From: Protoeuglena noctilucae
Taxonomy: Eukaryota
Length of the DNA stretch: 64,000 nt
Reading direction: 5' to 3'
NCBI GenBank assembly: GCA_958009085.1
Contig: OY253689.1
Location: forward strand, 186,001-250,000
Below are positions 5,968-63,371 of this stretch, piece by piece; position 1 is the first letter of the stretch, and every line of letters starts with the position of its first letter. Under the pieces are notes generated by a model. The model searched no databases. It worked only from the letters and a program-made list of their open reading frames with translations, and was not told the DNA's origin. Both the position numbers and the translations under genes were made by a program.

Positions 5968-8900
5968 ATGTTGCGCGTACCACGGTGCAGCAGTTACAGG
6001 TGAGAAGCCCCCAGACATGCGCAGGGAAGGCGCTGCGTTCATGGCCTGCGTGATAAACTGCCGCTTGCGGCCTTTGCAGGGTGCTGCGGAGGCGTGTCGT
6101 CTGCTACGGCGGAGCGCTTCTCTTCTCCCTGCTCTGGGCTTGTCACGCGTGGCTGTCGGATGGGTCGAAGGATCGCCTGGGACGCCGCCTTGCGAGCAGC
6201 GGCTCGTGCTCCAACTTCTCGCCCCCCGTCGGTGACGATATGCAGCATGGATATTTAACATGGATATGTCCCTCTCCGCTTCGCCGGCCCGCAAAACCAG
6301 CCGCCCCAGCATGTGGGCCCATGCGTTGAACCCTGGAGGAGCCAGAGCTCTCCTTCCCCCCCACTTGCACTCCTCTCGCGTCGCAGGGGAGTGGGAGCGC
6401 CGAGGCGGAGTCGTGGTGTGGTTTGCAGCGACCATCTACCTCTTCCTCGGCATTGCCATCGTGTGCGACGATTACTTTGTCGCATCCCTTGAGGCCGTCT
6501 CCAGTGCCCTCGGGCTGAGGTGCGCGCCATGCCAAGAATGCTTCGCTGCAAACCCCGGCTTGGCTTCGGGCGTATCATTCCCACATGTACGAGCAGCCGT
6601 CATCGCTCAGTCCAAATGCCCTTGCAGTGAGAATGTTGCGGGTGCCACCTTCATGGCGGCCGGCTCCAGCGCCCCAGAGCTCTTCTCGTCGCTCGTCTCC
6701 CTCGTCAACCCATCCACCGGGGTGAGGATACGCAATCACTGCTGGGGCGCACCGGGCTCATACCCGAACCACGCTGCCGTACCTGCACACCCGTCCCGCT
6801 TGTGATTTCAGAGCGACTTGGGCGTCGGCACGATCGTCGGGTCGGCCATCTTCAACATCTTCGTGATCATCGGTGCCACGGGCGTGTCCACGGGCATGGC
6901 GATGCAGCTGGACTGGCGGCCCATGGTGCGCGACGTGGCCTTTTACACCGTGGCGATCGCTTCCATCATCGGCATCTTCTCGGATGGCAAGGTGAAGGGC
7001 GCGCCGCAATGGTCTGGGACTCCTTGATGTGGTCCAGGGTGCCAGGCGGACACACGAAAGGCGCACGTTGGCATGAGTTGCAGTGGCAGGGCAGGCACAC
7101 CTCGACCTCCTCTGCTGCCATTCTCGCAGATCTATTGGTACGAAGGACTCATCTCCCTCGCTCTGTATGCCGCGTACATCAGTTTCATGAAGGCAAGCAT
7201 CCAACAGGCCGCTTGTTCACGCGCCCGACCCTCAGCAGCAAGCGCGGCCCGCTCACCCCCCCCCCGCGACCCCCCCTGCAGTACAACGAACAGTACATGG
7301 ACTGGTGCGAGCGCCACTTCCCCCGGTGGATGCCCAAGGCCGCCATAGATGCCCCCGCCGCCCACCACGAGAAAGCCACTGCCCTTCCCGCTGGAAAGGG
7401 CGTGCCAGACTTGGCTGGGACGCCCGCCAAGGTGCGTGACGCCGGTAGCAGACCGACAGACGAAGCTGATAAGTGTCTGCAACTGGAACGGCGCAGCACG
7501 ACTGGCGCAGCACGATCCTTGTGTGAACACGCCCCGGTCTTCGGCATGCCTTGCCGAGCCGCTGCCAGTTGCTGTGTTTTATGATGTTCCGAGAGTATCT
7601 GGTTGCAGGTACCCTCTCCTGCCGCGCCCGCCAAGGGCCCGCAAGGGCGCGTGGTGCCAGAGGAGGTGGTGGTGGATGACTCCGTGCAGGGCGGGAACGT
7701 GGCAGCCAGTGGCGGCCAAGACAGGGGCAAGGCGGACGGCGTGGAGCAGGGAGCGCTCGCCGGAGACGGCAGCACGGAGGGGAACGAGGTGCAGCAGCCG
7801 CCCCCTGTGAGGGACTTCAAGCACACGATGACGGGGGGCGCGGCGCGGTGGCAGTTCGTCACACAGGTGAGGGCGAGGGATCGGGGCCGGGCGTGGTGGC
7901 GGTGGGCAAGCTCTTTGTGGTTCTCCGTGTGCTGGGAAGGCTCAGTGGTGATTGCGCATGAGTGACCATTCGCATGTCTTTGCGTGTTTTTCCAGACCAA
8001 GGTGATGAGCGCGTGGAAGAGCGAGAACCGGAGCGGGACGAGGGGCGATGGGGGCAACGGGGAGGGAGCAGTGGGGGGTGGGGAGGGGCCCGAGCCGTCG
8101 GACAAGGGTACGGAGTCCAGGAGGCAAAAGGAACGAATCCTGACGGTGAACGAGAACCGGTTCGCCAGCGCCATCACTGCCATGGTCCAGGCGAGAGGCG
8201 CGATGGGGAGCGCACAGCGAGTGTAACACACTGCTCCATGTACGGAGAGGGCACCTCTCCACGCCGAGTGAGAGCGGTCAAGGAAAGGCCGCATGCCACC
8301 GCTATGTTGATCCACACCAAGCGACAGCGACGCTGCAGCGCCTTGCACCGTCCACGCCGTCCACTCTGCAGCCACCGGCAGCCACTCCGCTGCATCTCCC
8401 AGGCCCGCTTTTGCGCTTTCTCTCCCCCGCAGGCCCAGAAGGCCGCCAAGCGTCGCAACCTGACCAAGGGGCAGGTCCGGGCGCTGGCGTTGCAGATGCA
8501 GCACCCGCGCAAAGCAACGACCCTCGAGCGCGGGGAGGGTGGCAGGGGCGACGTGGAGGCAGGAAATCTCCCGCGGCAGACGATGGGTACCGGGGCGGCA
8601 GGTTCCGAGGCGGAGGGTGGTGACGACGATGATGACGAGGGTAGCCTCTTCTTGCCCCCCAAGGCAGTGGCTGACTGGCCCGTGTGGCTGCTGTCGCTGC
8701 CATGGTACGCCATGCTGACCGTCACGATCCCGGACTGCTCGACGCCTCGGTGGAGCAAGTGAGGGCATGCGAGAGGGCGGTGGGGCTGGCGAGGCGCATA
8801 CAAGGCATACCCCTGTCACGTCTTCGTCTGCCACCTCCGTCACGTCTCCATGCTTTCCTTCTTCTTTTCTGGCCGAGTTGATCTGCCTGCCTGTTTCGGG

Positions 8901-9870
8901 AATCAATAAACTTCCCGCAATTTCCCTACCAATCACAGCGGTCTCGCACGTTGCAGTGTGAACAGCCCATCGCCCACGCATGCTCTGATGCTCTATCTCA
9001 CTCGCAGGTGGTACTTGCTCACGTTCACCATGTCCATCTGCTGGATTGGCGCCATCTCCTGGTTCATGGTGGAGTGGTGCGGGCGCATCGGGTGCATCCT
9101 CAAGATCCCAGACATCGTCATGGGCGTAACGGTGCTCGCCATGGGCACCTCCGTGCCAGGTGAGACTAATCAGTGCTTGTGCTGGGTTACCTGGGACCTC
9201 ACCTATCCCTCCACCCACCAAATTCATGCACCCACACCCCTCACCCTTCCCTCCACCCACGCCACTCACTCTCCCTCTGCATCCCTCACCCATCCCTCCA
9301 CCCACCAAGCTCACAAACCCTCCATCGCCCTAATTCCACCCAGACCTCCTCTCTTCCATGATCGTGGCCAAGCAAGGCATGGGCGACATGGCCGTGGCCA
9401 ACGCCGTCGGAAGCAACGTCTTCGACATTTGGATAGGCCTTGGCGCGCCCTGGTTCTTCGTCCTGGTCGCCAAGCAAGAGGTCAACCATCTGGCCGACAA
9501 GGACCAGCTGTGGTGGAACGTGTTGATTCTCTTCGGGTCTCTGGCCTTCTACATGATATACGTGGCAGTGGATAAGTTCCGACTGCGCCCCAGCACCGGA
9601 TACGTCTTCCTCAGCATGTACGTCCTCTACGCGCTGTACGAGGTAAGGCAGCACGCAGTTACTGAAACAGAATACACAAGTCCATGTTTGACGCAGACGA
9701 GCGTGAACCGTCACATCTCATGTCTCAGTCCCACGCATCATCTCCCTTTCTTGATGTGGCACTGTTAGGTTCTAGCGACTTCTCTTCATGTCGTCTTTCT
9801 GCAGATCGTGCTTGTGTGGGTGCTGGACATCTATGGCCAGGGCGTGTCCCCCATCAAGGGGCGACACTAG
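5968..9870 (+). CDS. K+-dependent Na+/Ca2+ exchanger (SLC24/NCKX family)
   Basis: Alpha-1 repeat VCDDYF...VAGATFMAAGSSAPELF, GTIVGSAIFN. Alpha-2 repeat MGVTVLAMGTSVP, GDMAVANAVGSNVFDI. Long cytosolic loop, about 13 introns. Ends SPIKGRH-TAG. Confidence 0.92.
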
Positions 9871-10466: not shown

Positions 10467-13400
10467 TTAGTACATGTCCTGCACTCTGGCGACGTCCGGT
10501 GCACCCGCAGCCACCCCGCGTGCCCGCAGCAGTGCCCCCGCGACCCTGAGCCCGTCCACGGCCGCGCTCACGATCCCACCCGCATACCCCGCGCCCTCCC
10601 CGGACGGGTAAAGCCCCCTCACTCGCGTGGACTCGAGGGTATCTTCGTCTCTCACGATGCGGACCGGGGCGCTCGTGCGCGTCTCGACCTGCGGATGCAA
10701 AACGTGCCGGGGTTGAAACGTGCTGTCTGGCACGCGCACCCGCAAAACTGCTTCAGGGGCCGCAACAGCAAAAGCTTTTGCAACAAAGGGCCTTTGCTCT
10801 GACCGCATGTCTTCATGCTATGCGCGACCGAGGCCGTTTTATGACGCGTGCGCAGGTGAATCGTGGCAGCATGGCAAACTCTCACCCCGTACAGCACGGC
10901 GTCTTCGTGCACGAAGCCATCGAGCTGTCGGGCGAAGCGGGACAGGGCGGCGCGCAGGGCGGCCGTGATGGGTGGCGGGTACAGTTGGTCCAGGCGAGCC
11001 GAGGTGGCGCCCAGGCGGTAAGATGAAGGCGGCAGCGTCTCTGCAGACGTGGCACGGATGGCGCGTTTGAACTGGTAGTGGAAACGTGCTGTGTTGTTGG
11101 TGGCCATGCAGTACATGGACAACATAGCTGGCGCAGTTGGAAACGTGCCGTGCGAGTGCGTCGTTTACAAAACCCTCGACTGGCAGCACGAGTGCCTGAA
11201 ACCCACGCCGCGTCACCTGAGAGCCTGCCGCTGACGAAGTCCGTCACTCTCTGCACTGGCGCCTGGAACTTCCCACCGCCCATCGTCGCCGCCCTTCTCT
11301 CCATCTCCTCCTGTCAGGGCCAAGACGATGCGCATTCCTTTCATTAAAGAGGCCATGGCATGAAAGCCGTACAGGTCACGTGGAGCACAACCACGCATGA
11401 CGGCCCCAGCCCCAGCCACACCCCCCTCCACCCTCACCTGCAGCCGCAGCCCCGCCAGCACCCCGTGCTGCCCCTCATACGGCGCCCAGTCCTCGGGCAC
11501 CACTCCGACCACCAACGCCGAGTTGGCCCATCGGCTGTTGCGCCTACTGAAGCTCATGCCATTCACGCAAAGGTGCATCTCGCTGGTGCTCGTCGGGACC
11601 ACCTGGCCCCCGGGACACATGCAGAAGGAGTAGACGTTGCGACGACGCCATTCGCTGTCCCCAAACCCGCCCTGTCTCTCCCTGCCACCCGCCTCCGCAC
11701 CACCCAATGTGTCGTCAACACCCACCGTCCCATCACTGCGACTCCCCGTCGCCTCATCACTACCTCTTGTGTCATCACGTGCTACCTTCCTTGTCACATC
11801 ACCCACTCCCGCACCCATAGGCCGCCCGTCTGACCCCAACTGCGCCCCCGACGGCCCCTCTGCCCCCACCGCCCCCTTCACCGCATCCCACCGATCCCCC
11901 TCCACGGTCGGATGCTCTCTCATCCACAAATCACGCTCCGCCATCTCCTCCGCACTCGCAGCCACCGGCCCCGTCCCTCCCACAGCCTCCCCTTCGCCTC
12001 TCCTCTCTTCACCGTCGCTGCTCGACCCCGACAGCCCTTCGCCCCCGATGTCCACCTCGGCTGCCAGCCTGTAGTCCGCCACGGGTGCTTTACCCTTGCC
12101 CCGGTCCACGTGCGCCGCCAGCGTGGGGCCGTACTGCGCCTCGTCAATCGCAGACTGGGGGTGCTCAATGCGGAACCCCATTGCGAAGCGCTTGGGCACG
12201 ATCTCCACTCCCGCCTCCAGGAGCTTCTGTGAGATGAGGCGAGAGGGACGTGCATGTGGCAGGGTGCGACATGGGAGGGAGCGACGTGGGAGGGTGCAGG
12301 GTTGGGTCTGAAGCGCAGGCGAGCTGTCGTGCGCGCGAACACGACGGCCCGTGCATGCGCTGTGCCTTGCAACGCCATGATTAGATGACGCGTGTGGGAG
12401 CGCCGCTGTGACATCGATATGTCACCTCATACAGGGGCCGTGCGCTGTGCCCGACTGCCGGGATGACCGCGGAGGCCGGGACGACCTCGCCTCCCCGCAG
12501 CCGCACGCCTCTCACGGCGCCGTCGCGAACGTCGATGTCTGCCACGGTGCACCCGAACCGGACCTTCGCTCCCTGAGACTCTGCGCCACAAGAGAGGACG
12601 AAATGAAGTCACTCTTTCGTGTCATCAATCTTGGGTGAGACATGTGAAGTGGGAGGGAGCAGGATAGGACACCACCAACTTTTTTAGGATAGGGTTCGAG
12701 GGCAGATGACTCACTGGATCCCACAAGCACATCATTTTGCACCTCACGTCCTCTCACGCTTCGTATCCCACACCCGCCTCACCTAGGTGGGCTCGGAAGC
12801 CCTGCAGGATGCGCACCATCCGGTCGGTGCCCAAATGGGGCTTGCCCGCCACGAGGATGGACTCGGGCGCACCGAACCGCACCAGCGTCTGCAGCACGCA
12901 CCGCACGGGGCCCGAGTTGCGCCCGATGCGTGTCGTCAGCTTGCCATCCGACCACGTGCCCGCGCCTCCCTCCCTGCAGAGCGCCGGCGAGTCGAGCATT
13001 CCGCACCCACCCATAGCACGCCCCTGGTCATCCGCGCAAACCCCAAGCACACAGCACTTGCCCGTAGCACAGGTTGCTGTCCGGGTCGAGCTGCCGGCGC
13101 ACGAACAGCGCCCCGATGTCACGCCCGCGCTCCTCCACGGGCTGTCCCTTCTCAAGCACCGTCACTGCAACCCCCGCCTCCGCCAACGCCAGCGCCGCAA
13201 AGTACCCTGCCGGGCCTGAGCCGACGACCACGACCGGCCTGGAGGCGTCAGATGCACCGACGCCGTCGCGTCTGGGCGCGTCCCCCGCCGTGGAAGGCAG
13301 CCCGACCGTCTGCCGCAGGGTGGTGGCAGCGTCGGGTAGCGTGTCGCCTGCCAATGCCTCCATGACGCCCGGGCGGGCGGAGAGGCGTCGGGCGCCAGCT

Positions 13401-18216: not shown

Positions 18217-20313
18217 ATGGAGATGTCGGGACTGGTGGCTCCCCGTCCGGGAGCCTCCTGTACGAGCGCCAATCACACGATGCGCTGCGCCTTGTTGAGT
18301 ACCCCACGACTGCATGCAGGCGCATCATTCAGAAGCGGGGCTGCGCGGCCGATGGAGGGGCGCGGGGGGGCGCGGGGCGTCGCAGCTGCTAGGTGAGCGT
18401 GAGGAGGGCGTCTTGAGACCTTTCATGTATCACCGACGGGGAGGAACGCAACAACGATGCTGCGGGAGCTGCGACGAGCTGGCGATGTGGCGCAACGTCG
18501 CCGCGCGCCCCTCCTCTGCAGCGTGGCCGCACAGGCCCCATCCATCCCTGGGCTGGAGCTCCGGCGCCGAAAGCTGGGATCTTCGGACCTGTTGGTATCT
18601 GAGGCCTGCATGGGTGTGTTTTTGACCGCCAGGATGGTCCCCGCGATGCACACAGCGAGCCTCCCCCACACGTCCTCCTAAGCACTTTTCTCCGCAGGGA
18701 CGATGACGTTTGGCCAGCAGAACACAGAGGCCGAGGCGCACGAGCAGCTGAGCTTCGCTTGGGATTGCGGGGTCAACTTCCTGGACACCAGCGAGGCGAG
18801 TGTGGGACGGTCATTGCATGGTCGTGTACGCAGGGGCCTCATGCAGCATCTATGACGCATCTGCTGGGCCTTTGTGCTGCAGATTTACCCCGTGATGCCC
18901 ATGCGCGCGACAGGCGGGCGCACGTCGACCATCATCGGCAAGTGGCTCCGTGGGCGGGCACGGGACACGGTCGTCGTGGCCACCAAAGTCTCGGGGCGCT
19001 CCCAGGGCCTGGAGTGGATCCCCGCGAACCGCACGGAGCCCCGCGGGTCGGAATCGAACCCCCGCGTCGACGCGGCATCCATCCGCGCGGCATGCGAGGC
19101 CGAGCTGCGGCGCCTCAACACCGACTACCTCGACTTGTTCCAGATCCACTGGCCGGATCGCTACGTACCCGGTTTCGGTGCCTCGCGCTACCAGCGCAAG
19201 CAGGAGCGCGACTACGTGCCCTTTGAGGAGCAGGTGGAGGCCATGGGGCGCCTGATCGAGGAGGGCAAGGTGAGGCAGGGGGCACCCTCGTGGATGAAAT
19301 CGATTGGTGAGATAGTGACAGATGGTGCAAGTGTATGTGGGGATGATGCAGTGACAAGGCGCGTTCCATGATACCTGCGCCGTGCGAACCAGCACCAGCG
19401 CTGTTAACCACCAGCTGTCAACCACGCAAGCCTGTCTCCCACGCAGATCCGCCACTGGGGCCTCTCCAACGAGACTACCTTCGGCGTGACCATGCACTGC
19501 CTCACGGCCGACCGTCTCGGGGTGCCGCGGCCCGTGTCGGTGCAGAACTCCTTCTCCCTGCTGCATCGGTCGTTTGAGACGGAGCTGGCGGAGGCGTGCT
19601 CTCCCAGGCACTTCAATTTGGGCCTTCTCCCTTGGTCCGCCATGGCCGGGGTGAGGAGATGGGTTTGTGAATGGGTTTGAGAGGGTTCAGAGGCGCAGCG
19701 CTGACCAATTCATTCACCTGCCAGAGCCCGCAGCGCAAAGCCAGTTGCTTACTTTCTGTCACGTGCTTTCGTGCATACAGGGTGCGCTGTCGGGCAAGTA
19801 CCTCGGGGGCAAAGCTGACCCGAACTGGCGACTGGAGATTTGGAAAAGTCGATACCAGCGCTTCCGCAACGATCGGGCGTTGCAGGCGACCGAGGAGTAC
19901 GCGCGGGTGAGCAGAGCACGTTTGCTGGCGTGGCGCGCCGCCGCAATGAACTGAGTGCCTAATGCCTATCCATCCGACACACCCGTGTCCGCTCCTGCGC
20001 TGCAGATTGCGAAGGAGGCGGGCATCACGCCTGCCCAGCTGGCCTACGCCTTCTGCCGTTCGCGGGACTTCATCCCAAGCACGATCATTGGTGAGATTCA
20101 CATGCAATGCTTATCAAACGATAAGCTGTTGCCTGCCCGCGCTCCTACCAGCACTGTGAGATGTCCCTTCTGTCCCCGCTTTGCGCAGGGGCGACGACCA
20201 TGGAGCAGCTGAGGGAGAACCTGGGGGCGTTTGCAGTCACGCTGTCCGAGGACACGATGGCTGCCATCGACGACGTGCACCTGCGGATGCGGGACCCCTC
20301 CCAAATGGACTGA
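18217..20313 (+). CDS. Aldo-keto reductase, Tas-like, organelle-targeted
   Basis: LGSSDLLVSEACMGTMTFGQQNTE, FLDTSE|IYP, VATK, DYLDLFQIHWPDRY, GLSNET. The catalytic D/Y/K/H residues are present. Confidence 0.92.
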
Positions 20314-22290: not shown

Positions 22291-23695
22291 ATGCACGCAA
22301 TCAGCTGCGGCTTGTCGCCGCGGACCTCGGCTCCCCGACAAAAACGAGCACGACAAACGCGTGTGCGGGCGTTTCGACCCCCGGGGTCCTTCAATGATCT
22401 ACTGAAGCAGGTCAGAATCGGAGCGGGTCACGGACAGGCAATCTCGTGCGATTTGATGCCCTTTGTGCCCATCATCTCATCGCCTTGGCTGCTAGCAGGC
22501 TCAGGTCGGTACGCAGCGTGCGCTCGAAGATGGCGCCAACTTGCTAGAGATCGAGTTCCCTCCAGCGGGCCTGTGTGCCGTGCCGGGGGATGGGGAGGGT
22601 GCCAACGAGATGTCGTGGAACATGGGCTACCTGAGGACCTTCTTGACGATGTTCAACCGGCGAGTTCCACCTGCACGGCTCTGGTTTATGCTCAGAGCCC
22701 CTCCTGCCCTCCATCGACCCGATGGTGCCATGCCATGTCGCAGGGAGGCGGACAAGACGCGGGTGTTTTTCCCCGACAAAAGCGAGATGCTGGTGGCAAA
22801 ACGGGGGAAGGGCATCGACCCCAACGCAGGGAGTTGGGTCATCGAGGCGCAGTTCCAGGACACGAGGTTTCAGGCAAGAGGGCTTGCTACATGAAAACCT
22901 TTCCAGGGGACTGACAGCAGCAACTGCCGGTGCTGCCGCTTCTGCTGTCGGGGTGGACGTCACGCTGCAGTGCCATAGATAGATACTGCACACCCGCAGC
23001 TCGACTTCCTCACTAACCCCACGGGCCTGCTCGACATCGGCCTGGACTTGAAGAAGGTGGATGTGAAGACCAAGGTGCTCAACTCCTCGGATGCGAGGTG
23101 CGTGTGTCGGCGCTGCCCAGGGAATAGAAACAGTAGGGCATAGAGGCAACAGGGATGCCGGCAGGGCAAGTCACCCTGCCGCGGTTGACACACTCGCGCA
23201 GGTTCGTCTGCGCGTACCCGTCATTCCAGGTGCAGGAGCTCGAGGCCGTCGCCGAGGTGTACCAGGCCGCCAACGGCAGGCCCGTGATTGTGGTAAGCTG
23301 CGGGGTCTGGTTGCCCGCCACGCCTTGCCTCGCGCCTCCGCCCTTGGTTGAGACGAGCTGCGATTCACTGCGCACCCCCGTGGCCCCAGTTCAATGGCGA
23401 GCTCGACCGGTTCCGCACGGGCTACTATCCCTCACTGTTCTATCCCAAGATCGCGCAACTGTCCAAGACCTTCATCCCCGCCTTCAAGCAAGCCTACTAC
23501 CTGCGCAACCTCAAGGGCAGCCGAGCGGGCTGTATCTTCCACGTTTACGGCGAGCCGTGGCAGGTCTACGCACGGAGGTCCTTCGATCCCACGGACGTCG
23601 TGCTGGTGTGGGAAGGGGACGCGATGCCGACGCTCAAGGACGTGCAGCTCAAGATCCTGCCCAACGCGCGCAGCATCGAGGGCCGCGCTGTTTGA
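22291..23695 (+). CDS. LPA3: LOW PSII ACCUMULATION 3-like protein (DUF1995), plastid
   Basis: LEIEFPPAGLCAVPGDGEGANEM, TRVFFPD, FNGELDRFRTGYYPSLFYPK, GEPWQV. Transit-peptide-like N-terminus. Confidence 0.8.
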
Positions 23696-27336: not shown

Positions 27337-30300
27337 TCATCCGGCCTGCACAGAGGTCGCCTGCCCTTCCGCACCAGCCCCGCCCGTCTGTGTTGCGCCA
27401 CCGGGCGCGTCGGCAGTCCCTGCGTCCGCTGCCTCCTCGTGATCTATCAACGCCGGCTCCATCTCCCTTACGATTGCAGCAAGCGCCTCCTCTGCCGCCA
27501 GCTCCCGTGGGAGCTCCGCGATCAGCTGGGCCAACCGGTGCCGCTCCTTGGCGACGAGGAGCTCCACGGGGCGGAAGACCAGGAGGGCCAGGCTGCGGGT
27601 CAGGGGTGGGGAGGCGGCAGGGGTGATGGGGAGCAAGCCAGCAGGGATGGGATGGGGAGGTAGCAGGGACGGGGGCAAGCCAGCAGGGGTGGGGAGGTAG
27701 CAGTGGTATTGCTAACATGGCGCGTGGCAGCGACTGTGAGACAGTGGGCGCAGCTGTTTCGGCATGGGCCTACGTCCCCACAGAGCGATCAGTCCGCACC
27801 TGAAGGCCATGAAGAGCGTGGCGACGAAGAGAATGGCGTGGACTGCCTCAACAGCCCGGATGGTGTTGCCGCTCGCGTTGACCCAGTTGAGGACAACGTT
27901 CTCTGCGTTCTGTACGTCGTCACCGCCGTGCGTGATGAGGAACTGGTACCTGCGTTGAGGACGAATGGAGCGGCATGACAGGGAGGGTCGCTGCTGAGTG
28001 GGCACTCGAGAGTGTGCACACTCGCACACCCGCTGCTCCCGCTGCGTTGGCAATGCTGTTGCGACAGCCATGGTCACTCGCCTGGTGTTGAGCAGGTCCA
28101 GGTTCTGGTTGTCGTCGTAGGGCAGCAGGGACGCCTCTTCCATGAATCGATTGATTAGGGCGTAGAAGCCACGGTTCAGGGACGGCCAGTCGGGCTGCCA
28201 CATGGTCTCGCAGGTCGTTGACTGCGGGCGAGTGTGGGCAAGGGAGAGTGGGGAGAGTGGGCGCTTCGGGCTTGTGGGCGAGCATTGGCGAGTGGGAGTT
28301 GGGTGATGTTGGCCGATCTAAGTGGGCGAAAGCTGGGCGAGCTATGCATGGTCAGGTAAGAGATGTGGAGGTGCATGTGAGACCCGCCCTCCGCGCGCGC
28401 AGGCACTCACGCTGAAGCACTGTGGGTCGAAGTACGTGCTGAGGAGGCCGGAGCTCCAGAACACGGTGCCAGGCGGGATGTTGTACTTGCCGAACAGCGT
28501 GGTGTTGCCCCAAATGAGGGAGTTGACGGCGCTGCGGAGCTGGGCGTTGGATGCCATGATGTCGTCCCTGCGGATGGGCAGGCAAATGGGCAGCAAGGGG
28601 CTCAGAGTGTCTTAGCAGTGGTGATGGAGATGCATGGCGCGTCAGAAGCACCAACCGTGGCGTTCACAGTGCACCAACCCACCCCACACCATATCCACCG
28701 TACGACACCACCCCACCCCACCCCACCTCCCCACACCCCACCCGCCCACCTGGCGCCACCTCCATTCCTCGCCCAGGGCGACCCGTTGCGGGTGCAGACG
28801 GCCTCGATGACGAGCTCCGCGGCGTCGAAGATGATCCTCGAGGTCTTGGCGTTCATGAGGTGCGACACGCGGGTGGGCTCGATCTTCTTAGCGCTGTGCC
28901 CCTGAAGCGCCCACGTCGCCCCCAGCAGCGCGGCCACCGCCGCTGCCCAAGCGAAGAAGGGCAAGAGAATTTTTGCCTCCAACGCCCTGTGTGTCCGCTG
29001 CTTCTCTCGACGTCTCACCACCTGCTCCCACGACTGCACCACCCTCTCGGGGTCCAGCTTCTGAGCCAGCAGCAGCCGCACTGAGGCCCGCGACGCGCGG
29101 CGCTCCCGCAGGGCGTTGGCCTTGGCAGTCCGTGCGGTGGTGTCGGCCCCAGCACCCCCGCCAGCCCCGCTGCCACCGTTGTCGCCACCGCCGCCGGGGT
29201 CGTCGTCCTCCCCATCATCCTCCAGGTCGGCAAACTCGGGGTCTAAGTGCACTGGGCGCCTGGCGAGCTCAGCGAGGAGCCCGCGGGGCACCGCGAGGGG
29301 CACGGCCACCTGGGAGCCTCTCAGCACGAGCACGCGCCTCATGCGACGGTGGATGAGGAGCGTGGCGATGGGCACGAGGGCCCCCACGTCGATAGCCAGG
29401 AATGCCAAGGACAGCACGCCGATCGTGCGGAGGTTGGCCACCGTGCGGTCGACCAGGGCATCCAACAGGGCTTCGTACCTGAGAGACAGAGGCGGGTGTG
29501 TCATGTGAGAGACAGAGGTGGGTGCGTGGGTAGGTGCGTGGTGAAGGGGTGAACGATGGGTGGGGAGTGGAAGTGGACCGAGAGGGGGTGGGTGGAGGTG
29601 GGGCGAAGGAGCGTGAGTGAGGAGTGGACGATAAGTGGCTGGGTGGAGCGTGGGTGGAGATGGAGGGTGGAAAGGGTGGTTCCGTTCCCTTGCACTGCTT
29701 CCTCACCTGGGACTGATGGCATTTTTCGCGTTGAGGTCGACGAATTGGAACTGACTTAGCCGCGCCACGTCCTTGGCTGTCGCCTGCTGGTGAGTGAGCT
29801 GCGAGAGGTGCAGGCTGTTGGCGGCAAAGGTGCGCCCGGCACTCCAGAACGTTGACGTCACGTTCTCGACTCTGGCGTAAGCCAAGTCAGCGGCCGTTAG
29901 CTCTGAGAGGTGCATGTCTTCGTTGAGCCACAGGCCCTGCGGGGGGCAGAGGAGATGTCGCAGAGTGGGCGGGGATGCGGGTGCAGGCGTGGGTGCGGGT
30001 ACGGGTGCGGGTGCGGGCGTGGGTGTGGGTGCGGGTACGGGTAATAGTGTTGCGTGAGCTGTAAGTCATGGCTTCTCCGCTCTGCTCCCCTAGGCACTCA
30101 CCTCGAACCGTGCCTTCCAGTGCCCGCTGAAGGCGTTGACTGTCTCATAAAGCTTCACGTGTTGGCTCAGGAACGTCTGCGTCCTTTGTGCCATCTTCGC
30201 CTGGTTGGTGTGGAAGTCAGTGCTGGGGATGTCGAGGCCGACGGACATGCCCTGGAGGAAGTGCGCGAATCTCCCAATGTCGATGGCGTTCTGCGGGGGC

Positions 30301-47395: not shown

Positions 47396-49778
47396 TCAGT
47401 GAGCCTTGGCCGAGGCGCGTTGGATGGGCGGCTTGCCGTTCTGCTCAGACACCTTGACCTTGGACACCCTGCGTGGAACACACGGCGTGCATGCCGATTC
47501 GTAAACCACCCATTCCACGAAGCTCCACCACGCAACGCAGCACAAAGGGCCTGCTCCGCTGCATCGCGACTCGCGCTCCTCGACCCCTGCGCACAACGCG
47601 AGTATCATTCACATCCACCCAGTCAAATGGCATTCCAAATCACCTGGTTCCAAGAACCTCGACGCTCTTGGTCATCTCGGGCCCCGCCTCTCCGTTCGAG
47701 ACCGGGCTGGCTCGCGAGTCCCGCTTGCGCCCGTAAGAAGCCTCCTTGCCGCGCTCGACCCCCTGACCCGACGTCCCCTCCTGCGACGACGTCACGCTCG
47801 TCCGGCGCCGGAAGGAAATCGAGTGCTTGACCCGCTGCGCAAAGGTCGCCACCCGCGAAGTGCCCGCTTCCCCGTTCTCCTTCCCGGACACTGCCTTCCC
47901 GCCGTCCCGCGACGGCGCCACCTTGCCCGCTCCCGCCTGCGACGCGGCGCCCGCCGCGTTCCGCGTGAATATCCGAGACAGCACCGACCCCTGCCCCCGC
48001 CCCGCATCCTCCCCGTCTGTTGCGGGGCTCTTGGCTCCCCCCGTCTTCCGCGTCTGCGGCGATCGCCAGGAATGACGTCCACGATCGCAAACGCACGAAC
48101 CAAGGCTCCCAGTACCGGTAGGCAGGTGCATGAAGGGTGCACGCAGGGAGCTGGAGACCCGCCCGCCGCCCGCCTCTCACCTCCTCCCCGCCCGTCGTTG
48201 CCTTTTCCAAGGCCGGCGTCTTGCCGAGCGCCTCGTTGATGGCGCTCGTCGTGGCGACCAGCTCCGAGTCCCTTGGCTCCTCCACCTTGGGCGGCGCAGT
48301 CGGCATGTGCATGCGTATCCACGGGTGAGCCAACAGCTCCGCGCAAGTGGGGCGAGCCTTGGCGTCCCTGAGAGGGAAGGTAGCGGGGTGCGTGAGCCGG
48401 GTGCATTCGGGTCTAGGGGAGGCTGGCAGGTGCGTGGGGAGATATAGCGCTGTCGGTGTCTTTGCGCTCGCGACGGCAAGGCAACGTGGGTGGTAGCAGG
48501 GCTGGTCTGGGGACATAGCCCGGCTCGGTTGGTCGTCAGCAAGTCATGCGAGTCCCTGCGCACTCACTTGGTCATGCACAGGTTGAGAAAGTCCCAACAG
48601 ACGCGGGAGGGCCGGAAGCCCGCGGGCGGCTGCAGCACAAGCGAGTCCTGCTTCGACTTCAGGTCGTTGACGTCCTTGGCGCTGAAGGGTGGCCAGCCGA
48701 AGAGCGTTTCGTACACGAGCACCCCCAAGGCCCACACGTCGGCCCCTGTACCGTAGACCATCGCGAAGTTGTTCTTGTTCTCCCATGCATGGACCTTGTC
48801 CGCGCACGCGAGCACCTCCGGAGGCATGTAGTCGAGCGTCCCGACGCGCGAGACGGGCCGCTCGTCCGTGAAGCGGATGGACAGGCCAAAGTCGGCCAGC
48901 TTGACCGTCCCATGGTCGTCAATCATGATGTTCTCGGGCTTGATGTCGCGGTGGATGACGCCCAGCTGGTGCAGGTGTCGCAGCACCTGCAGGCCGGGGG
49001 CGGGCCGCACCTCTTGCCGGGTACAGCTGCCGCCAACGCAACCAGCGCCTCACGGAACCTGGGGCCCCCCGCACCTGGAGCATCGGCCAGGCGACCCTGC
49101 GGACCGTGGAGGCCTCGTCGAGGTGCTTGCGGTCCTCGAGGTACGCGAACAGATCGCCGTGCGGCATGAACTCCAGGACGAGGTAGTGGTTCTGCGCGTC
49201 CCCGAACGCGGCGTACAAATCGATCGCGTGCGGGTGCTTGATCTTGGAGTGAATCGCGATCTCCCGTGCGATCTGCATCTCGAGCACTTCGTGAACATTC
49301 TGCGCGCGCGAAGGGACGCCCAGCCGGTCACTTCGGCCGCGGCCCACGCTACCAGACCGGCCGTCGCATGCACCCGCCGCGGGGCGCCCATGCAAGGTAT
49401 TTCAGCTGCCACGCGGCGTCAACGGACCATCGCACATCCGTTCCCCGCGAGCGTCGCGATGGGGGCGGGCGCGCGGCCTGATGCGGGCGTCGGCAGGTCG
49501 CAACTTGACGGCCGCGCTTGCGGGCCACTTCTCGCCTTCTTGTAGACCTTAATGACGCAGGGATGGCTTGTGAGGCGACATTGAGCTTGATAGACGACGG
49601 AAGCGAACCCCGAGCCGAGCTCCCGGCCGATCTTGAACTGGCTGAGCGACCATCGGGCATCTGGGCGCGCGTCCGTCATCAGGGGCGGGCACGCCGCGCA
49701 AATGATCGCATCGCCCTTGCGCAGGGCGTCCGTCGTGACCTCAGGGCCATGGCCCGTCCGCGAAACGGGGAGGCTCAT
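47396..49778 (-). CDS. Aurora-like Ser/Thr protein kinase; 5' end uncertain
   Basis: [70 protein letters not shown]...HPW. Last exon VSKVK...AKAH-stop at 47396. Confidence 0.88.
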
Positions 49779-53572: not shown

Positions 53573-54993
53573 TCACGCGTGCTTCGAGTCACCGATGATG
53601 TGGCCCCTGCGTGGAACCGACTTACGATGCGCTTATCGTCTCCGCGCGCCGGCGACGACGCTCGCGAAGCAAGGCGCAACCGTGTCGCCCAACACTGCGT
53701 CGCCCCAACCGCCTCACCCAAAGAACGGGCTCATCTCGAGGATGACGTCGCCGTACGACACCGGCTCCCCGTCCTCGACGACGAAGGCCCCGACCTCCCC
53801 CGCCTGGGGCGCGAGCACAGGCTCGAAGATGCCCAGCTTCTCCACGTACGCCAGAACCTGGCCCTTCTTGACCGTGTCGCCCTCCTCCGCCGAGTTGCCC
53901 TTGCCGACGCGCTTCCCCTTCACGTACTTCCCGCGCCGCATGATGCCCACCGTCGGGGCCGTCACCGGCATCACCGTGCCGTCGTCCTCCTCCTCCGCGT
54001 ACTCCTCGACCGACGATGCTGCCGGGGCCGGCCGGGGCTCCGGGGACTGCGTCACGACCGGCGCGGGCGCGGCGACGGCGACGGGGGCCGCGGCCTCCGT
54101 CCGACGAACCACGCGCATCTGGAAGGCGCCGATCTCCAGCTCCACCTGCGGCGCGCGGCGTGGCAGCCGAGACCTTGATCCTTCCCACGGCGGCAGCCGG
54201 GTGCTCGGGCGGAGCGCCCTCTGGGTGAAATCGCACGTACTCAGCATCTGCAAGACGCGGCGGCTGTGGCGGGGCGGGAGCTCGCCTGCGCAAACTGGGT
54301 CTGGTCGCAAATCAGGTCGATTAGCGTGACGACCTGCTCGGGCGTGAGGCCGTCCTTCTCGTGGCCCTCCCGCACCTTGACCTCCACCGGCTTCACTGCG
54401 AGTGGAAGCTGCGGGCGCATCGCCACCCCGCGCTGTAGGAGGTCGGCCCAAGCCAAACTCGCGGCCAGACGGGCGTGGGCCGGGATTGCAGCGTATCCGC
54501 GCGTCACCCCAGGCGCGGTGAACCAGGAACGGAGCGATGATACAAAGCGCTGCGCCGCCCGGGCCGCACGGGGTCGCTCGCGAGCGGCACCACGCCGTTC
54601 GAGGGCCCTCGGGGGTGGACCGGCGGGACGCGAGCTCGGAACGACCAAAAGCTAGTTATTCAGACGAACGGAACTGCCATCGCATTCCGCCCGTGGGAGG
54701 TCGGTCCCCACATTCACCGCAGCCCCCCAAATGGCATCCGCAGGCCCCGCCCCGGCGTGGCAGGGCCTCACGCCGCCACGACTCGGTCGGATTTGACCGC
54801 GATCGACATCCCAAGAAATCCCAACGTCCAAGGGCGCGCCCCGGGGCCCCGGCGCCTCTATCGAGTCCTCGCCTTCGGGCTTGGCCTCCGTGGTCGTCCG
54901 CACCGCCGAGTGCGCCACGAGCCTAGTCCCCCGGGAGCATCCCCGCACCCTCGCGCCCGCGCAGGCGGGGGCCGCGACGGTCGCCAGCGGCAT
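53573..54993 (-). CDS. BADC: Biotin-attachment-domain-containing protein (BADC; non-biotinylatable BCCP-like), plastid
   Basis: ICDQTQFAQ|VELEIGAFQMRV, VTAPTVGIMRRG, EGDTVKKGQVLAYVEKLGIFEPV (no EAMK). Last exon PFFG|GHIIGDSKHA-stop. Confidence 0.85.
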
Positions 54994-55260: not shown

Positions 55261-57073
55261 ATGTTCGCCTCTGCCGTGACCGCCCGCCCTGCCGGGGCCG
55301 TTGCGGGGCCCCGGTCGCGGCAGCGGACGGTGCGCGTGTGCGCGGTCGCGGAGACCACGCGCTCTGCGCAGGGCAGGAAGCAGGTGCGCACCCGTTCCTC
55401 TCCCGGAGCGGGGAGCAGTTTTGCTTAGCAGAGGGACGTGTTATCTGGCGCGCTGCGCCCGATGCCCCTTCCCAAGCACGCGACGCTGCGCGCATCGAAT
55501 GCGATACTCACATTTCGTCGTTGCGCTAACCCTCCCGCGGATCTGCAGCGCCATCCAAGCCAGGCAAGCAAGACGCGGTGCAATCTCCGTGCCAACCGTC
55601 CCTTGCCCGCAGGCCGCGTCGCCGAAGGGCACCCCCGAGCCCTATCCCATGGACCAGTCCTCTAGGCCCCGCCGCAACCGGCGCAGCGAGGTCAGTGGCG
55701 CTTCCCAGCACCAGAGCCATGATGTCGCTGCTATGGACTGCAACTGAATGGCCCCCTGCCCCGGCTGTTCCGCAGGCCATCCGCCGCGGCATCCGCGAGA
55801 CCTTCCTGGGTCCCGAGCACTTCATCCTGCCCATCTTCGTCCACGAGGAGGGTGAGAGCGCCTTCTGTTGCTCCCGCTGTCGACCCCAGCAGCAAGACAG
55901 CTAGCTTGCACTATTGGCCGCCCCACCCTCTGAGCTGCCCCCCCCCCCGTGCGCCTCCGGCCGTAGAGAAGAACGTGCCGATCCCGTCCATGCCTGGGAT
56001 CGAGCGTCTCTCGTTCAAGAACAGCGTCAAGGACTACGTGGCGCGGGCACGGTCCCTGGGCGTCAACCAGGTGGTGATCTTCCCCAAGACTCCCGACCAC
56101 CTGAAGTCGCCCATCGGGGAGGAGGCCTTCAACCCGGACGGCCTGTCGCAGCGGACCATCCGCCTCCTCAAGGACTCGTTCCCTGACCTCGAGGTCTACA
56201 CGGACGTCGCACTCGACCCGTACAGCACGGACGGCCACGACGGGATCGTGCGCGACGACGGCGTCATCCTCAACGACCAGACCATCGAGCTCCTTTGTCG
56301 CCAGGCCGTCTCCCAGGCTGAGGCCGGGGCGGACTGCGTGGCGCCCTCGGACATGATGGACAGCCGCGTCGCCGCCATCCGCGAGAGCCTCGACATGAAC
56401 GGCTTCACGGACGTCTCCATCATGTCCTACACGGCCAAGTACGCCTCCGCTTACTACGGCCCGTTCCGTGACGCCCTCGACTCTGCCCCGCGTGCCGGCG
56501 AGACGGGGCGCGTCATCCCGCCCAACAAGCGCACGTACCAGATGGACCCCGCCAACCTCCGCGAGGCCCTCCGGTTAGTGTTTTCGCGCCGACGCGGGAG
56601 CGGCCACAAGCTCACACCCACTACGCTTGCGCAGGGTGGGCGGGTCACGCCGCGCGCCGCTTAGGCGGGCACGGTGCCCGGGCGTCCCCCTCGACTGCCA
56701 CCGCCGCCCGGTGCCTGATGCCGGCAATCAGCAAGCTGCGGGGACCTGCATCGCGCTCGGCTGCTCCTGCAGGGAGGCGGAGCTGGACGAGATGGAGGGT
56801 GCGGACATCTTGATGGTCAAGCCGGGGCTGCCCTACCTGGACGTCATCCGGTACCTGCGGGACAACACGACGCTGCCGGTGTCCGCGTACCACGTGTCTG
56901 GGGAGTATGCCATGCTCAAGGCGGCAGCGGAGCGGGGGTGGCTGAACGAGAAGGACGTGGCGCTGGAAACGCTCATGTGCTTCCGCCGCGCGGGGGCCGA
57001 CATCATCCTGACCTACTTCGCGGCACAGGCGGCCGAGTGGATAGCGGGGGACAAGATGCCGCGCCTCTACTGA
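55261..57073 (+). CDS. HEMB: Delta-aminolevulinic acid dehydratase (porphobilinogen synthase), plastid
   Basis: [22 protein letters not shown] (Asp-rich plant/Mg type), [42 protein letters not shown]. Confidence 0.96.
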
Positions 57074-57193: not shown

Positions 57194-57859
57194 TCAATTC
57201 TGCCCGCCGCCTTTCGCGCCTTGGTCCCCGAACATCTCAATGGCGGTGGCGGCCACCCCTGCGAGGGAAGATGCGATCCTACGGGGTTCGGATGCCAGGC
57301 TCTGCCGCGGCGCAAGTAGCTGCGGCTCCAGCAGCCCTCAGCGCACCTAGCAAGTCGGTGAAGGTCCCCACGGCTCCCCGAAGCATCTTGGGGTCGGTGG
57401 CGCAGAAGTGGATCAGGACATCGTTCCCCTCGGACTTCACTACCTTTTGCACGTTCGCAGGATGCAGCTGCGGTTGCAAAATGGATACAGGGGGCCACCT
57501 CGGCCTCGCTGCGGAAACCCAACAGCTGCCGTGGCGCAGACAGGCTGCGCAACCGCATTCACGGCCCGTTGGGATGCCGACGGAAAGAAACTTCGCAGCA
57601 ATCACCTCCTGGTCGACGCTCAGGGCCCTTGACACCATCAGGGCATGCTCCGGAGTGGCGAACGTGACTCGCGACGAGTATTCGTACGGCTGCGGGCAGA
57701 GTGCGAGCGATGAGTCAGCTGCAGGTATCTATGTCATATCATGCGTCCATTCACAGCCGATTTTCGCTTTCAGGCAGTCGCCTGGTCTCTGGGCAACCAG
57801 AGACTCGCCTTCTCCGCCGCCTTCTCCGCCGCTTTCTCCCCTACCTCCTCCTCCCCCAT
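57194..57859 (-). CDS. PCC1: KEOPS complex subunit Pcc1/LAGE3
   Basis: YSSRVTFATPEHALMVSRALSVDQE|LHPANVQKVVKSEGNDVLIHFCATDPKMLRGAVGTFTDLL|GVAATAIEMFG. Confidence 0.85.
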
Positions 57860-59146: not shown

Positions 59147-60433
59147 TTACGAGGCTACGGCCCCGATCGACCTCTGACGACTTACAGAGTTGTCTGGTGG
59201 CCTCTGGGCCCCCGATGGCCGCCCCGTGCCACTGATATGTGTGCCTGACGCCGCGATGAGCCTCGTCTCCATCTCAGCCACCTCCTGCTCCAAAGTCATC
59301 GTGCGTGCCTGCCGGCGCACGAGTGACGACTGCCGCCGCGCCGCCGCGTGCTGCGGCCAGGAGACGGCAGTGAGTTGAGACGTACCCCGCCAGGTCCCGC
59401 AACCAAGATAGCGAGGCAGCCAACAGAGCTGTGCATAGCCAGGTCCTTCCTTGGCAAGCCAACAGCCGGGACACTCGAGGCGCTCCAACTCACGTCGACG
59501 CTCTCCCGCCCGCCCTCGACGTCTCGGTCGGCTGCAGTGTCCCCTGGACCACCGCGGGCGGGGTCGCTGTACGTGGGCGCCATGGGGATCACCCCCACGG
59601 CGTGCACATACGTGAAGGCCTCCTTGCCACCCTCGTACTTGACCGGGAGCTGGCTCCGTTCCTCGTTCCAAGCCAGCGCCTGCAGGTTGCGCAACGAGGT
59701 GGGCGAGGCGTGGACAGCGTGGGGCATCCGGGCCACGGCGGTGGAACACTCGCAGGCGTTGTTGCTAATGCCTCATACAGGGTCCAGTATCATCGTCACC
59801 ATGTAAGAGTCCGCGTCGCACCTTAAGCACGGCCCGTTCGCTGCCGAGCAGGGCGCTGTCGGCGGGGAAGATGGCCCGGGCTCTCTGGAGGCACTGCTCC
59901 AGTGACCGATAGACGTATAGGCCGCCCCGGTGACCATCCACGATGCGCTGCATCACCGTCGTGCCCGTCCGGTACTCGGTCACTCCGTCAAACACCGACA
60001 CGGGCACGCCATCCCGTATCGCGACCACCTTGTAGCAAGTAACGGCCCAGGTTGGGGGGCGCCGCGAGACGATGCAGGGCGTAAGCTGGGGCAGCCACGC
60101 GGCACCTGATGGCGACGGGGCGTCCTGTGATCGGCCCCAGCCCTGCGCCGCCTCTGCCGCGTTGCGGATGGAGGCCCTCAGGTCCTGCTCAAACTCATAC
60201 TCTCTGCGCGCAAGTAGCGGCGGCGAGCTGCTCGGCGCGAGATGAAACGCACACCGCGCGACGACACCGGGCGTGGCGGCGCCCTACCCAAGCGCGAAGG
60301 ATAACGAATGTGGCCCGTTGCCCAGCGCGTAGTCCCTCCCCGTCCCGCTCGCGTCCACGTTCAAGCGGGCCCGGAGGTTGCCCAGGACGCTAGCTACTTC
60401 GATGTCCAAGTCGAGGCTGTCTTCGCCCCGCAT
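59147..60433 (-). CDS. Hypothetical protein with a globular YK...SVFDG.TEY..G...H.GG.Y domain and C-terminal coiled coil
   Basis: Exons MRGEDSLDLDIEV..., CYKVVAIRDGVPVSVFDGVTEYRTG..HRGGLYVYRSLEQCL..FPADSALL, ..KEAFTYVHAVGV.., TLEQEVAEMETRL. Confidence 0.65.
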
Positions 60434-60802
60434 TCGTCCCAGAGTCGCGTGCTCCGAGCGCGAGTTGCAGGTGCAGCAGTAACAGAGTACAACGAGCGAC
60501 TCCGCCACGCCGGAATCTCGCCGGACGCCTGAGGCTGGCTGGCCGCTGGCAGAGAAAAAACCCCGTGCCAGAGCTCCGCAAGACTGCCCTGGATCAGTCA
60601 CTGCCTGGTCCCATGTCCACGTACCTGCCTGACGCGTGGAGATGGCGAAGCGGTTGTAAAGCAAGACGACTTGCAGCGAGCAGCTCGCCGCCCACGCATG
60701 CTGAGTCGCATCCCCACGGCAGGCGCTTGATTTCCCAACTTGTCCGGCATCTGACCAAGCGGCAGTCGCAGGGCCGCGGTGGCTGGGTCGCGGTGCTGCG
60801 CC

Positions 60803-61868
60803 ATGGCGGAGTTCACGATGAACGGGGTGGGCCCCAGCGGCCCCGCGTCGACTTCGGGGATGCCATGGTACAACACCGCAGCGAGGTGACGTTGCCAGTC
60901 CTGCGGAGCGTCCGCGCTGCGATGCGCGCCCTCCCCAGCTCACAGCGTCGCCCGCTCCGCCCTTTTGCAGCGGGTACGCCGGGTCTCAGGCCCGGCCGCC
61001 TCCGCCCATGAGCCAGGGGAACGGGAGAGTCCCGATCGAGGACGAGGAGCCTCTCATTCAAGGCACGCGGCGCTGTACGCGTCGCGCAGGCAGCGCCCGT
61101 TCCCGCAGACGGAGCTCCCGCGGATCCCGATCTCTGAGCGAAAGCCTTTGCTTGTCGTGCGCAGAGCTGGGGATTGATTTGGGCGGGGTCACGAAGCGCC
61201 TGATGCTCGTGCTCACGATGCAAGCGGCCAAGCAGCCGCAGCTCATGGCGGAGGCAGACGTCGCGGGGGCGCTGGCGGTGCTGCTGGGGATAAGCGCGTT
61301 GCACCTGTTCTTGGGGAAGCTGCACTTCGGGGTGATTTTGGGTGAGCAAGCGACTGAGGCTCTGCGGCACACGCTGGGACTCAGCGCGGCGAAAGGCGTG
61401 CAGGAAGACAAATTGCTAGCGCTCCGTTCTCGCAGGATGGACCGTCGTCGCTGCCCTCGTCATGTCATGGATGTTCTCGCTCCTCGCCCAGCCGACGTTC
61501 TCTGGGCCTCAGTCGCAACCCCCGGGTGCCTTCCGCACCCTGTGCATCCTCGGCTACTGCCTCATCCCCATGGTCGGCCTGGCCGTCGCGGCGGTCTTCT
61601 TCAACGCTGGGCTGCTCCTGGCTGGCATCGCAGGCGAGTGTGCAGAGACTCTGCCCCGTGCGCACCCTCGCCAGCCCAAAGGCGGCCCCCGCCAAAGCCC
61701 AGTCCCCCAGCCTCCCTCGCAGCCTTTTGCGTGCTCTGGTCGTCCTATCTCGTGGCGGTCATCTTTACGGGCTTCGTCGAGGAGCTCAAGGGCAACCAGA
61801 CCCTCGTCATGTTCCCTGCCCTCCTCTTCTACGCCATGATCGCCATCCTCACGCTCTACCGCCGCTAG
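60803..61868 (+). CDS. Yip1-domain Golgi/ER membrane protein
   Basis: EDEEPLIQ|ELGID, DVAGAL, GKLHFGVILG, LCILGYCLIPM, WSS, LVMFPALLFY. Confidence 0.88.
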
Positions 61869-61970
61869 TGAGGCCCCTCGCGGGCTCAACTCCTACCCCG
61901 AACACTTTGACAGTTGCATTCAATTCGCAAGCCCGGTTCACCCAACGGTTGGCGCGAAAGTCGAGAGAGT

Positions 61971-63371
61971 CTAGTGGCCCAGGGTCCCTGCGAAGGCCTC
62001 GACGGCGCGCTTGCGCTCGTCCTCGATCTCCTGCGCCGAAGAACAAGGTCCAAATGGTCAGCTGCCCACGGTGCCGCCTTCGTCGCACCGTGCGCTGTGC
62101 CCGTCACCCACGCAGCCCGTATGTATCACCTTGAGGCGGTCCGTGCACAGCTCCACCTCCTCCTGCTCGTACTGCTTCAGGAGCGACCCCTTCTCGTCCA
62201 CCCCCAGCGACTCCCACAGGCCCGTCTTGGCCAGCTCGGCCGACAGGGCCTTCATGCCCTCCTCGCTCGAGAAAAGCACGGGCTTGCCCAGCTTGCTCTC
62301 GGCCTGGTCGAGCGCGCGAGAGAAGGCCGTGTACGCCTCCGGGAGCAGGTGCGGCTCCGCCTGGGCCTTGAACTGCACGCGGGGTCGGGGGTACCCACGG
62401 TCTCAAAGGGCGCACGTCCGTGAAAAGAGGGCTTGGACTGCAAAGGCGACGCCATCGGTGCCAACGGCGCGGTATCTGACGTCGCCCGAGCGCTGCGGGT
62501 GCACCTTGCGGACGGAGTCTTGCGCGTTGCGGACCAGGAGCTCGCGCTGGAAGGCAACCTGGTGCCACCGCTGGAGGATGCCGTGCTTGTCCTTGAGCGA
62601 AAGGACGCTCTTGACGAAGCTCGCCACGCCGCCCCCGTTGGACGAGGAGGGCGTCTCGATGGCCTCCACGGCCGCCTGCGAGGGAGGTGCGGGGTCTGCC
62701 CGTCCTGCCCGGGCCCGCGGGCGAAAGCGGACGGCGAGTCGCGCGGCGCCGATCAACGACCACGCTCCCGTGCGGGACCGGCGGCGGGCGACGCGCCTTG
62801 AAGCCCTCGACCGCCTCCATCTCCTTCACGGCCGTGTAGATGAGCGGATCCACGTTGGCCTTGGCCGCCTCCGCGTCCCAGGACTCGTACTTGGCGCGCT
62901 GGGCGGCCCAGAACTGGTCGTGCTCCTTGTCGCGCGCCCCGGACGACAAATCGGCCTGGTACTGCTTCTTCTTCGCTTCGAGCGCCTCCTTCTCCACCTG
63001 CTTCACGAACTGCTCCAGGCTGGACACCTCCTGGGGAGCCGCAGCCAAAAACCGCCCTGCCAGCGGCGTGTTCCCAGCGGCCCGGGCCAGGCCCGCGCCC
63101 AGACCCTGCGGAGGGAGGGCTGGCAGGCATTGCGGGCGCCACGCGGGGCGCGAGCCGGCTCCCCGCACGCTCCTCGCGCGGCATGCTGCATTTGAGAGCG
63201 ATCGTTGCCACGGGGGGCGTCATCCGGCCCAGAACGCAGCGCAGGCCAGCGACACAGTGCCGGACTGGGCCGATGCGGCACCCAGCGCGCGGGGACCCAG
63301 TGCAACGCCCAACGATGAGCCCACGAGCTCCGCGGGGCCCTCACCGAGCCGAGAATCCTCCGCAGCGACAT
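61971..63371 (-). CDS. Mitochondrial ATP synthase 24-kDa subunit (FAd/MGP1-like)
   Basis: ALDQAESKLGKPVLFSSEEGMKALSAEL...LKQYEQEEVE...EIEDERKRAVEAF resembles my recollection of the plant FAd C-terminus. MSLRRILGS presequence. Confidence 0.7.

Follow-up and report, generated by a model that had tools for sequence, protein, structure and literature searches.

Does the green alga Protoeuglena noctilucae splice a substantial part of its introns at GC instead of GT donors, and if so, by what cause? The question is raised by a stretch of 64,000 nucleotides (contig OY253689.1 of GCA_958009085.1, positions 186,001 to 250,000, i.e. G000:C22:186001-250000; hereafter the window), for which an earlier note, made from the sequence alone, had claimed an exceptionally high frequency of GC-AG introns. 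The genome comprises 26.3 Mb in 27 contigs, with a GC content of 66% and a median intron length of ~123 nt. According to RNA joints and a self-training gene model, the excess of GC-AG introns is real and well supported. The phenomenon itself is known (see also PMC3488318): P. noctilucae represents an additional, apparently introner-free alga that is rich in GC donors.

RNA evidence for splicing at GC donors

Three marine metatranscriptome runs from a single study (X1, X2 and X4) supplied RNA contigs, which were placed on positions 44001-64000 of the window together with one DNA run; the latter may be the assembly's own sample and revealed no differing letters over this region. Fifteen RNA joints were examined, 14 of them, present in each of the three runs, from a listing that extends to 30 further joints: eleven were GT-AG and four GC-AG, and for the latter no GT-AG reading was possible inside the ambiguity range. 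Metatranscriptome contigs show presence only, and the proportion of 4/15 is biased upward, because the region was picked for its candidate sites. All four GC-AG joints occurred in 3/3 runs: two of them belong to a BADC-like (biotin-attachment-domain) gene on the minus strand, i.e. the intron 54146..54285 (donor CAG/GCGAGC; Biotin_lipoyl in the next exon) and a previously unlisted intron of 477 nt at 54396..54872 (donor AAG/GCGAGG); the others are located in a Yip1 gene (61063..61164, plus strand, donor AAG/GCACGC) and in a gene that had been called FAd, a name that is unconfirmed (62676..62796, minus strand, donor AAG/GCGCGT). Eight GC donors had been proposed for this region; three were confirmed by RNA (54285, 61063 and 62796), four are not among the joints listed (46466, 49535, 57808 and 61634), and one, 55564, was contradicted: it is situated inside a GT-AG intron of the porphobilinogen synthase gene (55384..55612, plus strand, RNA joint in 3/3 runs), has a posterior of 0 in the gene model and does not serve as donor in the isoform concerned.

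The intron 54396-54872(-) is unusually long, and run X2 contains an unspliced contig of 443 nt at a depth of 4.4, compared with 206.6 for the spliced form; this contig may represent pre-mRNA, intron retention or DNA. A joint 48955-57813 with a 20-letter side in the DNA run was dropped as a repeat artefact.

Gene model and share of GC donors

The self-training gene model allowed the donors GT and GC as well as GA and GG as decoys, with an initial share of 5% for every donor type other than GT; it was trained on the window and forty 10-kb stretches, with starting weights taken from a soft reading of the window. RNA joints were never used as labels, the window itself being within the training set. 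The model recovered 15/15 RNA joints with posteriors of at least 0.87. In the training stretches, 128 of 798 introns with a posterior >0.9 had GC donors, which were distributed over 37/41 stretches at a homogeneous share (chi-square p 0.84); with the decoys set at the GC prior, 126 GC donors and no decoy were obtained among 787 introns. Sixteen held-out stretches yielded 35 GC, 194 GT and three decoy donors. The pooled GC share, 163/1030 or 15.8% (confidence interval 13.7-18.2; 57 stretches on 23 contigs), refers to introns of coding regions only, in a sample of ~2.4% of the genome. Within the window, 18/118 introns (posterior >0.9) or 21/127 (>0.5, including the modelled donors 5657 and 41700 discussed below) start with GC. 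With 30 occurrences in the window versus 25.2 +/- 5.2 by shuffle, the word AGGCRAG is not enriched; the evidence is therefore splicing and not motif count.

GC-AG introns of the window and of splicing-factor genes

Each of the 18 coordinates of the earlier note marks the first letter of a GC dinucleotide on one of the strands. The note's 14 main sites and its extras 8191 and 49535 reached a posterior of 1.0 each; with a GC prior of 1% and GT flanks, 12/14 main sites stayed at 1.0, whereas 30448 fell to 0.89 and 13061 to 0.59. Protein evidence was obtained on the plus strand in a Tas-like aldo-keto reductase gene, where the exons on both sides of the intron 18796..18882 match Tas 20-51 and 52-164 without gap, and in a gene with a TFIIS zinc ribbon, where the exon upstream of the intron 46466..46581 matches Pfam positions 1-37 of 39 and WREC-stop completes the domain. 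Beyond the window, the U1C model, whose splicing requires one GC donor, has an identical counterpart in a JGI/IMG protein (P0121), and a GC intron of Prp8 coincides exactly with the boundary of residues 1505 and 1506 of the human protein. Several splicing-factor genes contain GC introns (U1C 1/3, Prp8 2/14, METTL16-like 1/8; L044:1872, L143:2407 and 8097, L058:1906), and further models are dense in them (L010:4134-5342(-) 4/5; L007:3-6688(-) 5/17).

Further GC-AG introns with a posterior of 1.0 were modelled on the plus strand in an Na/Ca exchanger gene (7193..7281, with Na_Ca_ex in an upstream exon, and the extra 8191..8432, both under all three priors), in a DUF1995 (LPA3-like) gene with DUF1995 in its last exon (22660..22743 and 22874..22999), in a gene called LRR by the earlier reader (39578..39705; name unconfirmed) and a second time in the Yip1 gene (61634..61722). 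On the minus strand they are present in a PAS-domain gene (27950..28081, unlisted before and stable under all three priors; 34541..34734, donor ATG/GCGAGT, with PAS in the next exon; 30291..30448 with a posterior of 0.89-1.0), in a gene called C2 (41324..41414; name unconfirmed, no Pfam match in the two exons scanned) and in a protein kinase gene (the extra 49300..49535; Pkinase in the next exon). The extra site 57808 is a possible donor: the minus-strand intron 57690..57808 of a gene with a Pcc1 match has a posterior of 0.68, its rival donor 57781, likewise GC, one of 0.34.

The intron 12974..13061 (minus strand) of an FAD-dependent oxidoreductase gene is probable. Its YG/EGGAG junction is present in 82/129 homologues with the upstream motif (150 examined); nevertheless, 13061 is the weakest of the 14 main sites because of a GT located 4 nt downstream, and the own-species database match of this gene is an unspliced read-through. 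At 13057-13061(-), several homologues (P0124-P0272) run into other residues just past the same motif, which suggests introns at or near the equivalent position in other algae. The modelled GC donor 5657 was rejected, as it joins a kinase gene to the exchanger gene and drops to 0.17-0.19 with GT flanks; the posterior of the modelled donor 41700 varies between 0.23 and 0.86.

Dependence of GC donors on U1 pairing

The GC donors exhibit the consensus MAG/GCGAG, in agreement with the AG/GCRAG that had been deduced from the window. They match U1 more closely than GT donors do, with -2A, -1G, +4A and +5G in 91, 99, 87 and 96% versus 57, 89, 64 and 82% of the sites, and this difference persisted with GT flanks imposed. 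When matches at the core U1-pairing positions (-2, -1, +3, +4 and +5) were counted in 1057 modelled introns, the GC share was 142/320 (44%) for five matches, 25/563 (4.4%) for four and 0/174 for three or fewer. The relaxed 5' splice-site recognition that had been postulated holds only conditionally: nearly all GC donors show a full match to U1 at their remaining positions. The neutral expectation for C at +2, taken from intron interiors, is ~51% (GCG:GTG ratio 1.05); if a balance of mutation and selection is assumed, the shortfall on a log scale would amount to 0.27, 3.1 and >5.9 for five, four and fewer matches, respectively. C/(C+T) amounts to 0.60 within introns and to 0.83 at fourfold sites, and observed/expected CpG to 0.95. 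The dependence on context persisted when all donors were scored with GT flanks, with 104.8 expected GC donors in the full-match class and a decoy level in the weak class. The predicted pairing with U1, calculated with U at +2, averages -10.8 kcal/mol at GC sites and -8.1 at GT sites, and among CAG/GYRAGT donors 25 are GC and five GT.

GC and GT introns did not differ significantly in length, interior GC content or acceptor. All of the 30 most frequent GC donor words resemble GCRAG, and the GCATCC of U12-type introns is not among them; no U11 small nuclear RNA (snRNA) was found at E<=1, and no search was made for U12. The modelled introns of the window and L003-L042 have highly uniform acceptors (-3C 98-100%, -4G 83-86%); none of the candidate branch-point words predominates (CTGAC 8-9%, CTCAC 12%), and GT donors carry G at +3 in 93%.

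Splicing machinery

The proposed variants of U1 and U6 snRNA are unsupported, because U1, U6 and U5 turned out to be canonical: a single U1 gene with canonical 5' end was detected by Rfam and DNA search, and the U6 ACAGAGA box and U5 loop 1 are canonical as well. The U1 match of 65.9 bits is lower than the gathering score of 69.5, and four loci reading ATACTTGCCTG exist that could encode a compensating U1 end; however, this number equals that of the chance control (4), and the loci have no U1 match at E<=5. An artefact of assembly or prediction might likewise be considered, as most GC sites rest on the self-trained gene model. The agreement of the DNA run letters, the scarcity of GA/GG donors (0/787 in training, 3/232 held out) and the confirmation of seven GC sites by RNA, database protein or homologues argue otherwise, and a variant U1 or U6 that pairs with GC donors, or such an artefact, has next to no probability. 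The U1 and U5 genes, each found once, are located 24 kb apart on one contig (C20:523585 and C20:547394, G000). A tRNA-like stretch beside U6 is not a tRNA according to ARAGORN.

Alternatively, the discrimination at +2 may have been lowered by a specific alteration of U1C, Prp8 or some other protein of U1 or U5; protein or modification causes were suggested for other algae by Iwata and Gotoh (PMC3033335). The P. noctilucae U1C carries S11, F12 and V19, whereas human U1-C contacts the duplex via T11, Y12 and S19 (PMC4383343). In a comparison of 47 distinct homologous N-termini (from 69/80 loci), S11 occurred in 0/47 and V19 in 0/33 other sequences, but the three positions vary among homologues (F12 in 13/47, S19 in only 22/33), and growth of yeast is unaffected by single alanine changes at these residues (PMC4383343). 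One Prp8 exon departs from both human and the 8xi2 chain at residues 1524, 1566, 1577, 1588 and 1593 (human numbering). The persisting exclusion of GC donors from weak contexts and the absence of GA/GG donors, however, make a protein change unlikely as the main cause; the U1C residue differences represent a lead and not a result. Loss of METTL16 or SNRNP27 was rejected as a cause (a METTL16-like gene and SNRNP27 are both present), as was loss of methyltransferases, since 10 DNA_methylase matches exist, though CpG is barely depleted.

Tests for introners

The GC introns might also descend from introners that invaded the genome long ago and have since decayed, comparable to those of Micromonas pusilla and pelagophytes: in M. 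pusilla, 79% of the GC donors lie in introns of one introner family (D-IE1; PMC4815162), introners with GC donors have been described from Pelagomonas (preprint) and dinoflagellates (PMC11282704), and introner signatures fade over time (PMC3879977). In P. noctilucae, however, any blastn partner was found for only 4/167 GC introns versus 53/890 GT introns, although small families could be missed in a sample of 2.4% of the genome. The GC introns displayed no positional information past +7 and no length peak, the exons that follow them do not begin with a GC bias, and terminal repeats, whether inverted or direct, are not in excess; target-site duplications were not found, and the 40 matches listed for a genome-wide search with 20 kb of the window, crowded by one repeat, included none of the GC introns of 44001-63999. 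An introner origin is thus regarded as very unlikely.

Proposed origin of the GC donors

The GC-AG introns are probably ordinary U2-type introns, the +2 position of which drifts to C in a GC-biased genome where flanking pairing compensates. Donors would still be selected by the unchanged U1 5' end; C at +2 would cost one base pair and be tolerated when -2, -1, +3, +4 and +5 all pair, with the result that T and C would be nearly interchangeable at strong donors. As substitutions run toward G/C, such positions would drift to a near-neutral share of C, and as ~30% of the donors are in strong context, a GC share of ~16% overall would follow. The GC donors would have originated in place by near-neutral T-to-C substitution, driven by GC-biased substitution, in the presence of a spliceosome that may be somewhat more tolerant of +2C than those of land plants or mammals. 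Earlier authors have proposed that GC donors are compensated and that they are fixed neutrally in strong contexts (PMC1557818, PMC2490688), and GC-biased change at +2, one of the causes considered in the earlier note, appears to fit the data.

Several points weigh against this explanation, at least in its pure form. The direction of change is inferred, as no orthologous intron and no T/C polymorphism at +2 was seen (80 U1C loci, among them no close relative's genome, contain neither a GC- nor a GT-donor counterpart of the U1C GC intron). Micromonas RCC299, with a GC content of 64%, has only 1.5-2.7% GC donors (PMC3033335, PMC4815162), and mammalian GC donors barely track local composition (PMC2490688); likewise, local GC content and GC-donor share were uncorrelated here (rho 0.15, p 0.33). 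At perfect sites, GC exceeds the neutral share (25/30), which pure neutrality does not predict. Unused AG/GCRAG was counted 32 times in exons and AG/GTRAG once (a model-based, partly circular count), which indicates that GC is still the weaker signal. Finally, +4A is absent in 2/4 RNA-proven GC donors compared with 10/128 in the model's single-mismatch +4 class, so that weaker GC donors may be undercounted. Because of the low share in RCC299, the missing correlation with local GC, the unused exon words and the excess at perfect sites, an added tolerance or a stability optimum is likely. It is a possible, though not a probable, extension that +2C is preferred and not just tolerated at the strongest donors, i.e. 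that an unchanged U1 has to pair within a narrow range of stability, that perfect GT donors are selected against and that GC acts throughout the genome as the mismatch by which they are tuned, in an introner-free setting.

Selection for a window of U1-donor stability, favoring C at +2 of otherwise perfect donors as it weakens a too stable duplex, might even account for the GC donors as such. Besides the preponderance of GC among CAG/GYRAGT donors, the steady rise of the GC share with predicted pairing energy is consistent with this explanation, and so is the distribution of +6T, which is avoided by strong GT donors (14/178, 7.9% versus 16.4% background, p 0.001) and enriched in strong GC donors (47/142). 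The numbers are small and model-derived, however, and the avoidance of +6T could stem from U6 pairing or other constraints; as the principal cause, such selection appears quite improbable.

Comparison with other GC-donor-rich genomes

In M. pusilla CCMP1545, GC donors make up 25.6% overall, 43.5% in introner introns and 9.7% in regular introns (PMC4815162); Iwata and Gotoh (2011, PMC3033335) reported GC-AG shares of 22.2% for M. pusilla, 39.6% for Aureococcus anophagefferens and 7.7% for Chlorella sp., and ~50-55% GC donors are cited for Emiliania huxleyi (PMC7779022, PMC4815162). The share of ~16% in P. noctilucae lies above the ~10% estimated for the window and far above a level of 1-2%, but the attribute "exceptionally high" needs tempering because of the higher published shares of other algae; in regular introns, it is the highest among the green algae compared, as far as the cited figures extend. 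No report of GC donors in pedinophytes was found in a literature search to which subscription journals and supplements were mostly beyond reach: the main text of the pedinophyte genome preprint contains neither "splice" nor "donor" (its Table S1 may hold figures), the term "GC-AG" is absent from PMC12574857 in its accessible parts, and pedinophyte shares may be contained in the supplementary species table of Iwata and Gotoh, which was beyond the search.

Like P. noctilucae, M. pusilla CCMP1545 (~66% GC) is a GC-rich marine green alga with a canonical U1 5' end and donors that GT-only predictors miss (PMC4815162, PMC3879977, PMC3033335); it differs in the dominance of the D-IE1 family with the introner motif AG/GYGCGT, as compared to AG/GCGAG and no family found in P. 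noctilucae, and belongs to a different algal class. Chlorella sp. and Aureococcus also combine high genomic GC with many GC-AG introns, the U1 of Aureococcus being canonical as well (PMC3033335), but the share here is twice that of Chlorella, and the GC donors of pelagophytes are linked with introners (Pelagomonas preprint), none of which were found here. In E. huxleyi, GC donors are similarly a major class that defeats gene predictors; this haptophyte has a far higher share. The U2-type GC-AG introns of plants and animals resemble those described here in their stronger U1 match elsewhere in the donor and in having the same acceptors as GT introns, whereas their share of 0.4-1.2% is more than tenfold lower (PMC1557818, PMC6310983, PMC2490688; 1.2% in plants, PMC6310983).

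The cause of the abundant GC-AG introns in some GC-rich algae was termed an enigma in 2011 (PMC3033335), and introners were later shown to make up most of the case that is best studied among green algae (PMC3879977, PMC4815162). In the compact genome of P. noctilucae, which combines one canonical U1 and ~16% GC donors and in which introner families were not detected, this confounding factor is removed, and the sharp dependence on U1 pairing provides a testable quantitative rule. For annotation, the warning that GT-only prediction would mis-annotate these genes proved justified: half of the multi-exon models (95/185) change if GC donors are disallowed, and U1C and Prp8 are among the genes that carry GC introns themselves.

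Phylogenetic placement and minor observations

Among named organisms, Pedinophyceae sp. YPF-701 provides the best match (81%) of a porphobilinogen synthase exon, and the spliced protein was grouped with it at 100/99 in a one-gene tree of 43 rows; a tentative placement within the Pedinophyceae is suggested by this single gene.

A 58-nt element at window positions 59688-59745 has at least 34 copies of 85-92% identity over many contigs; it sits in a stop-broken frame without Pfam match and is probably a decayed transposon, with a possible likeness to KDZ-type transposases. The modelled gene 59147-60433 is therefore doubtful. The hairpin L049:165-269, which matches several microRNA families only weakly and below threshold, is likely an inverted repeat. 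DNA-methylase matches in long open frames of 366-400 aa were detected on three different contigs (L052, L053 and L054); such frames are unusual for an intron-rich genome and possibly of mobile or viral origin.

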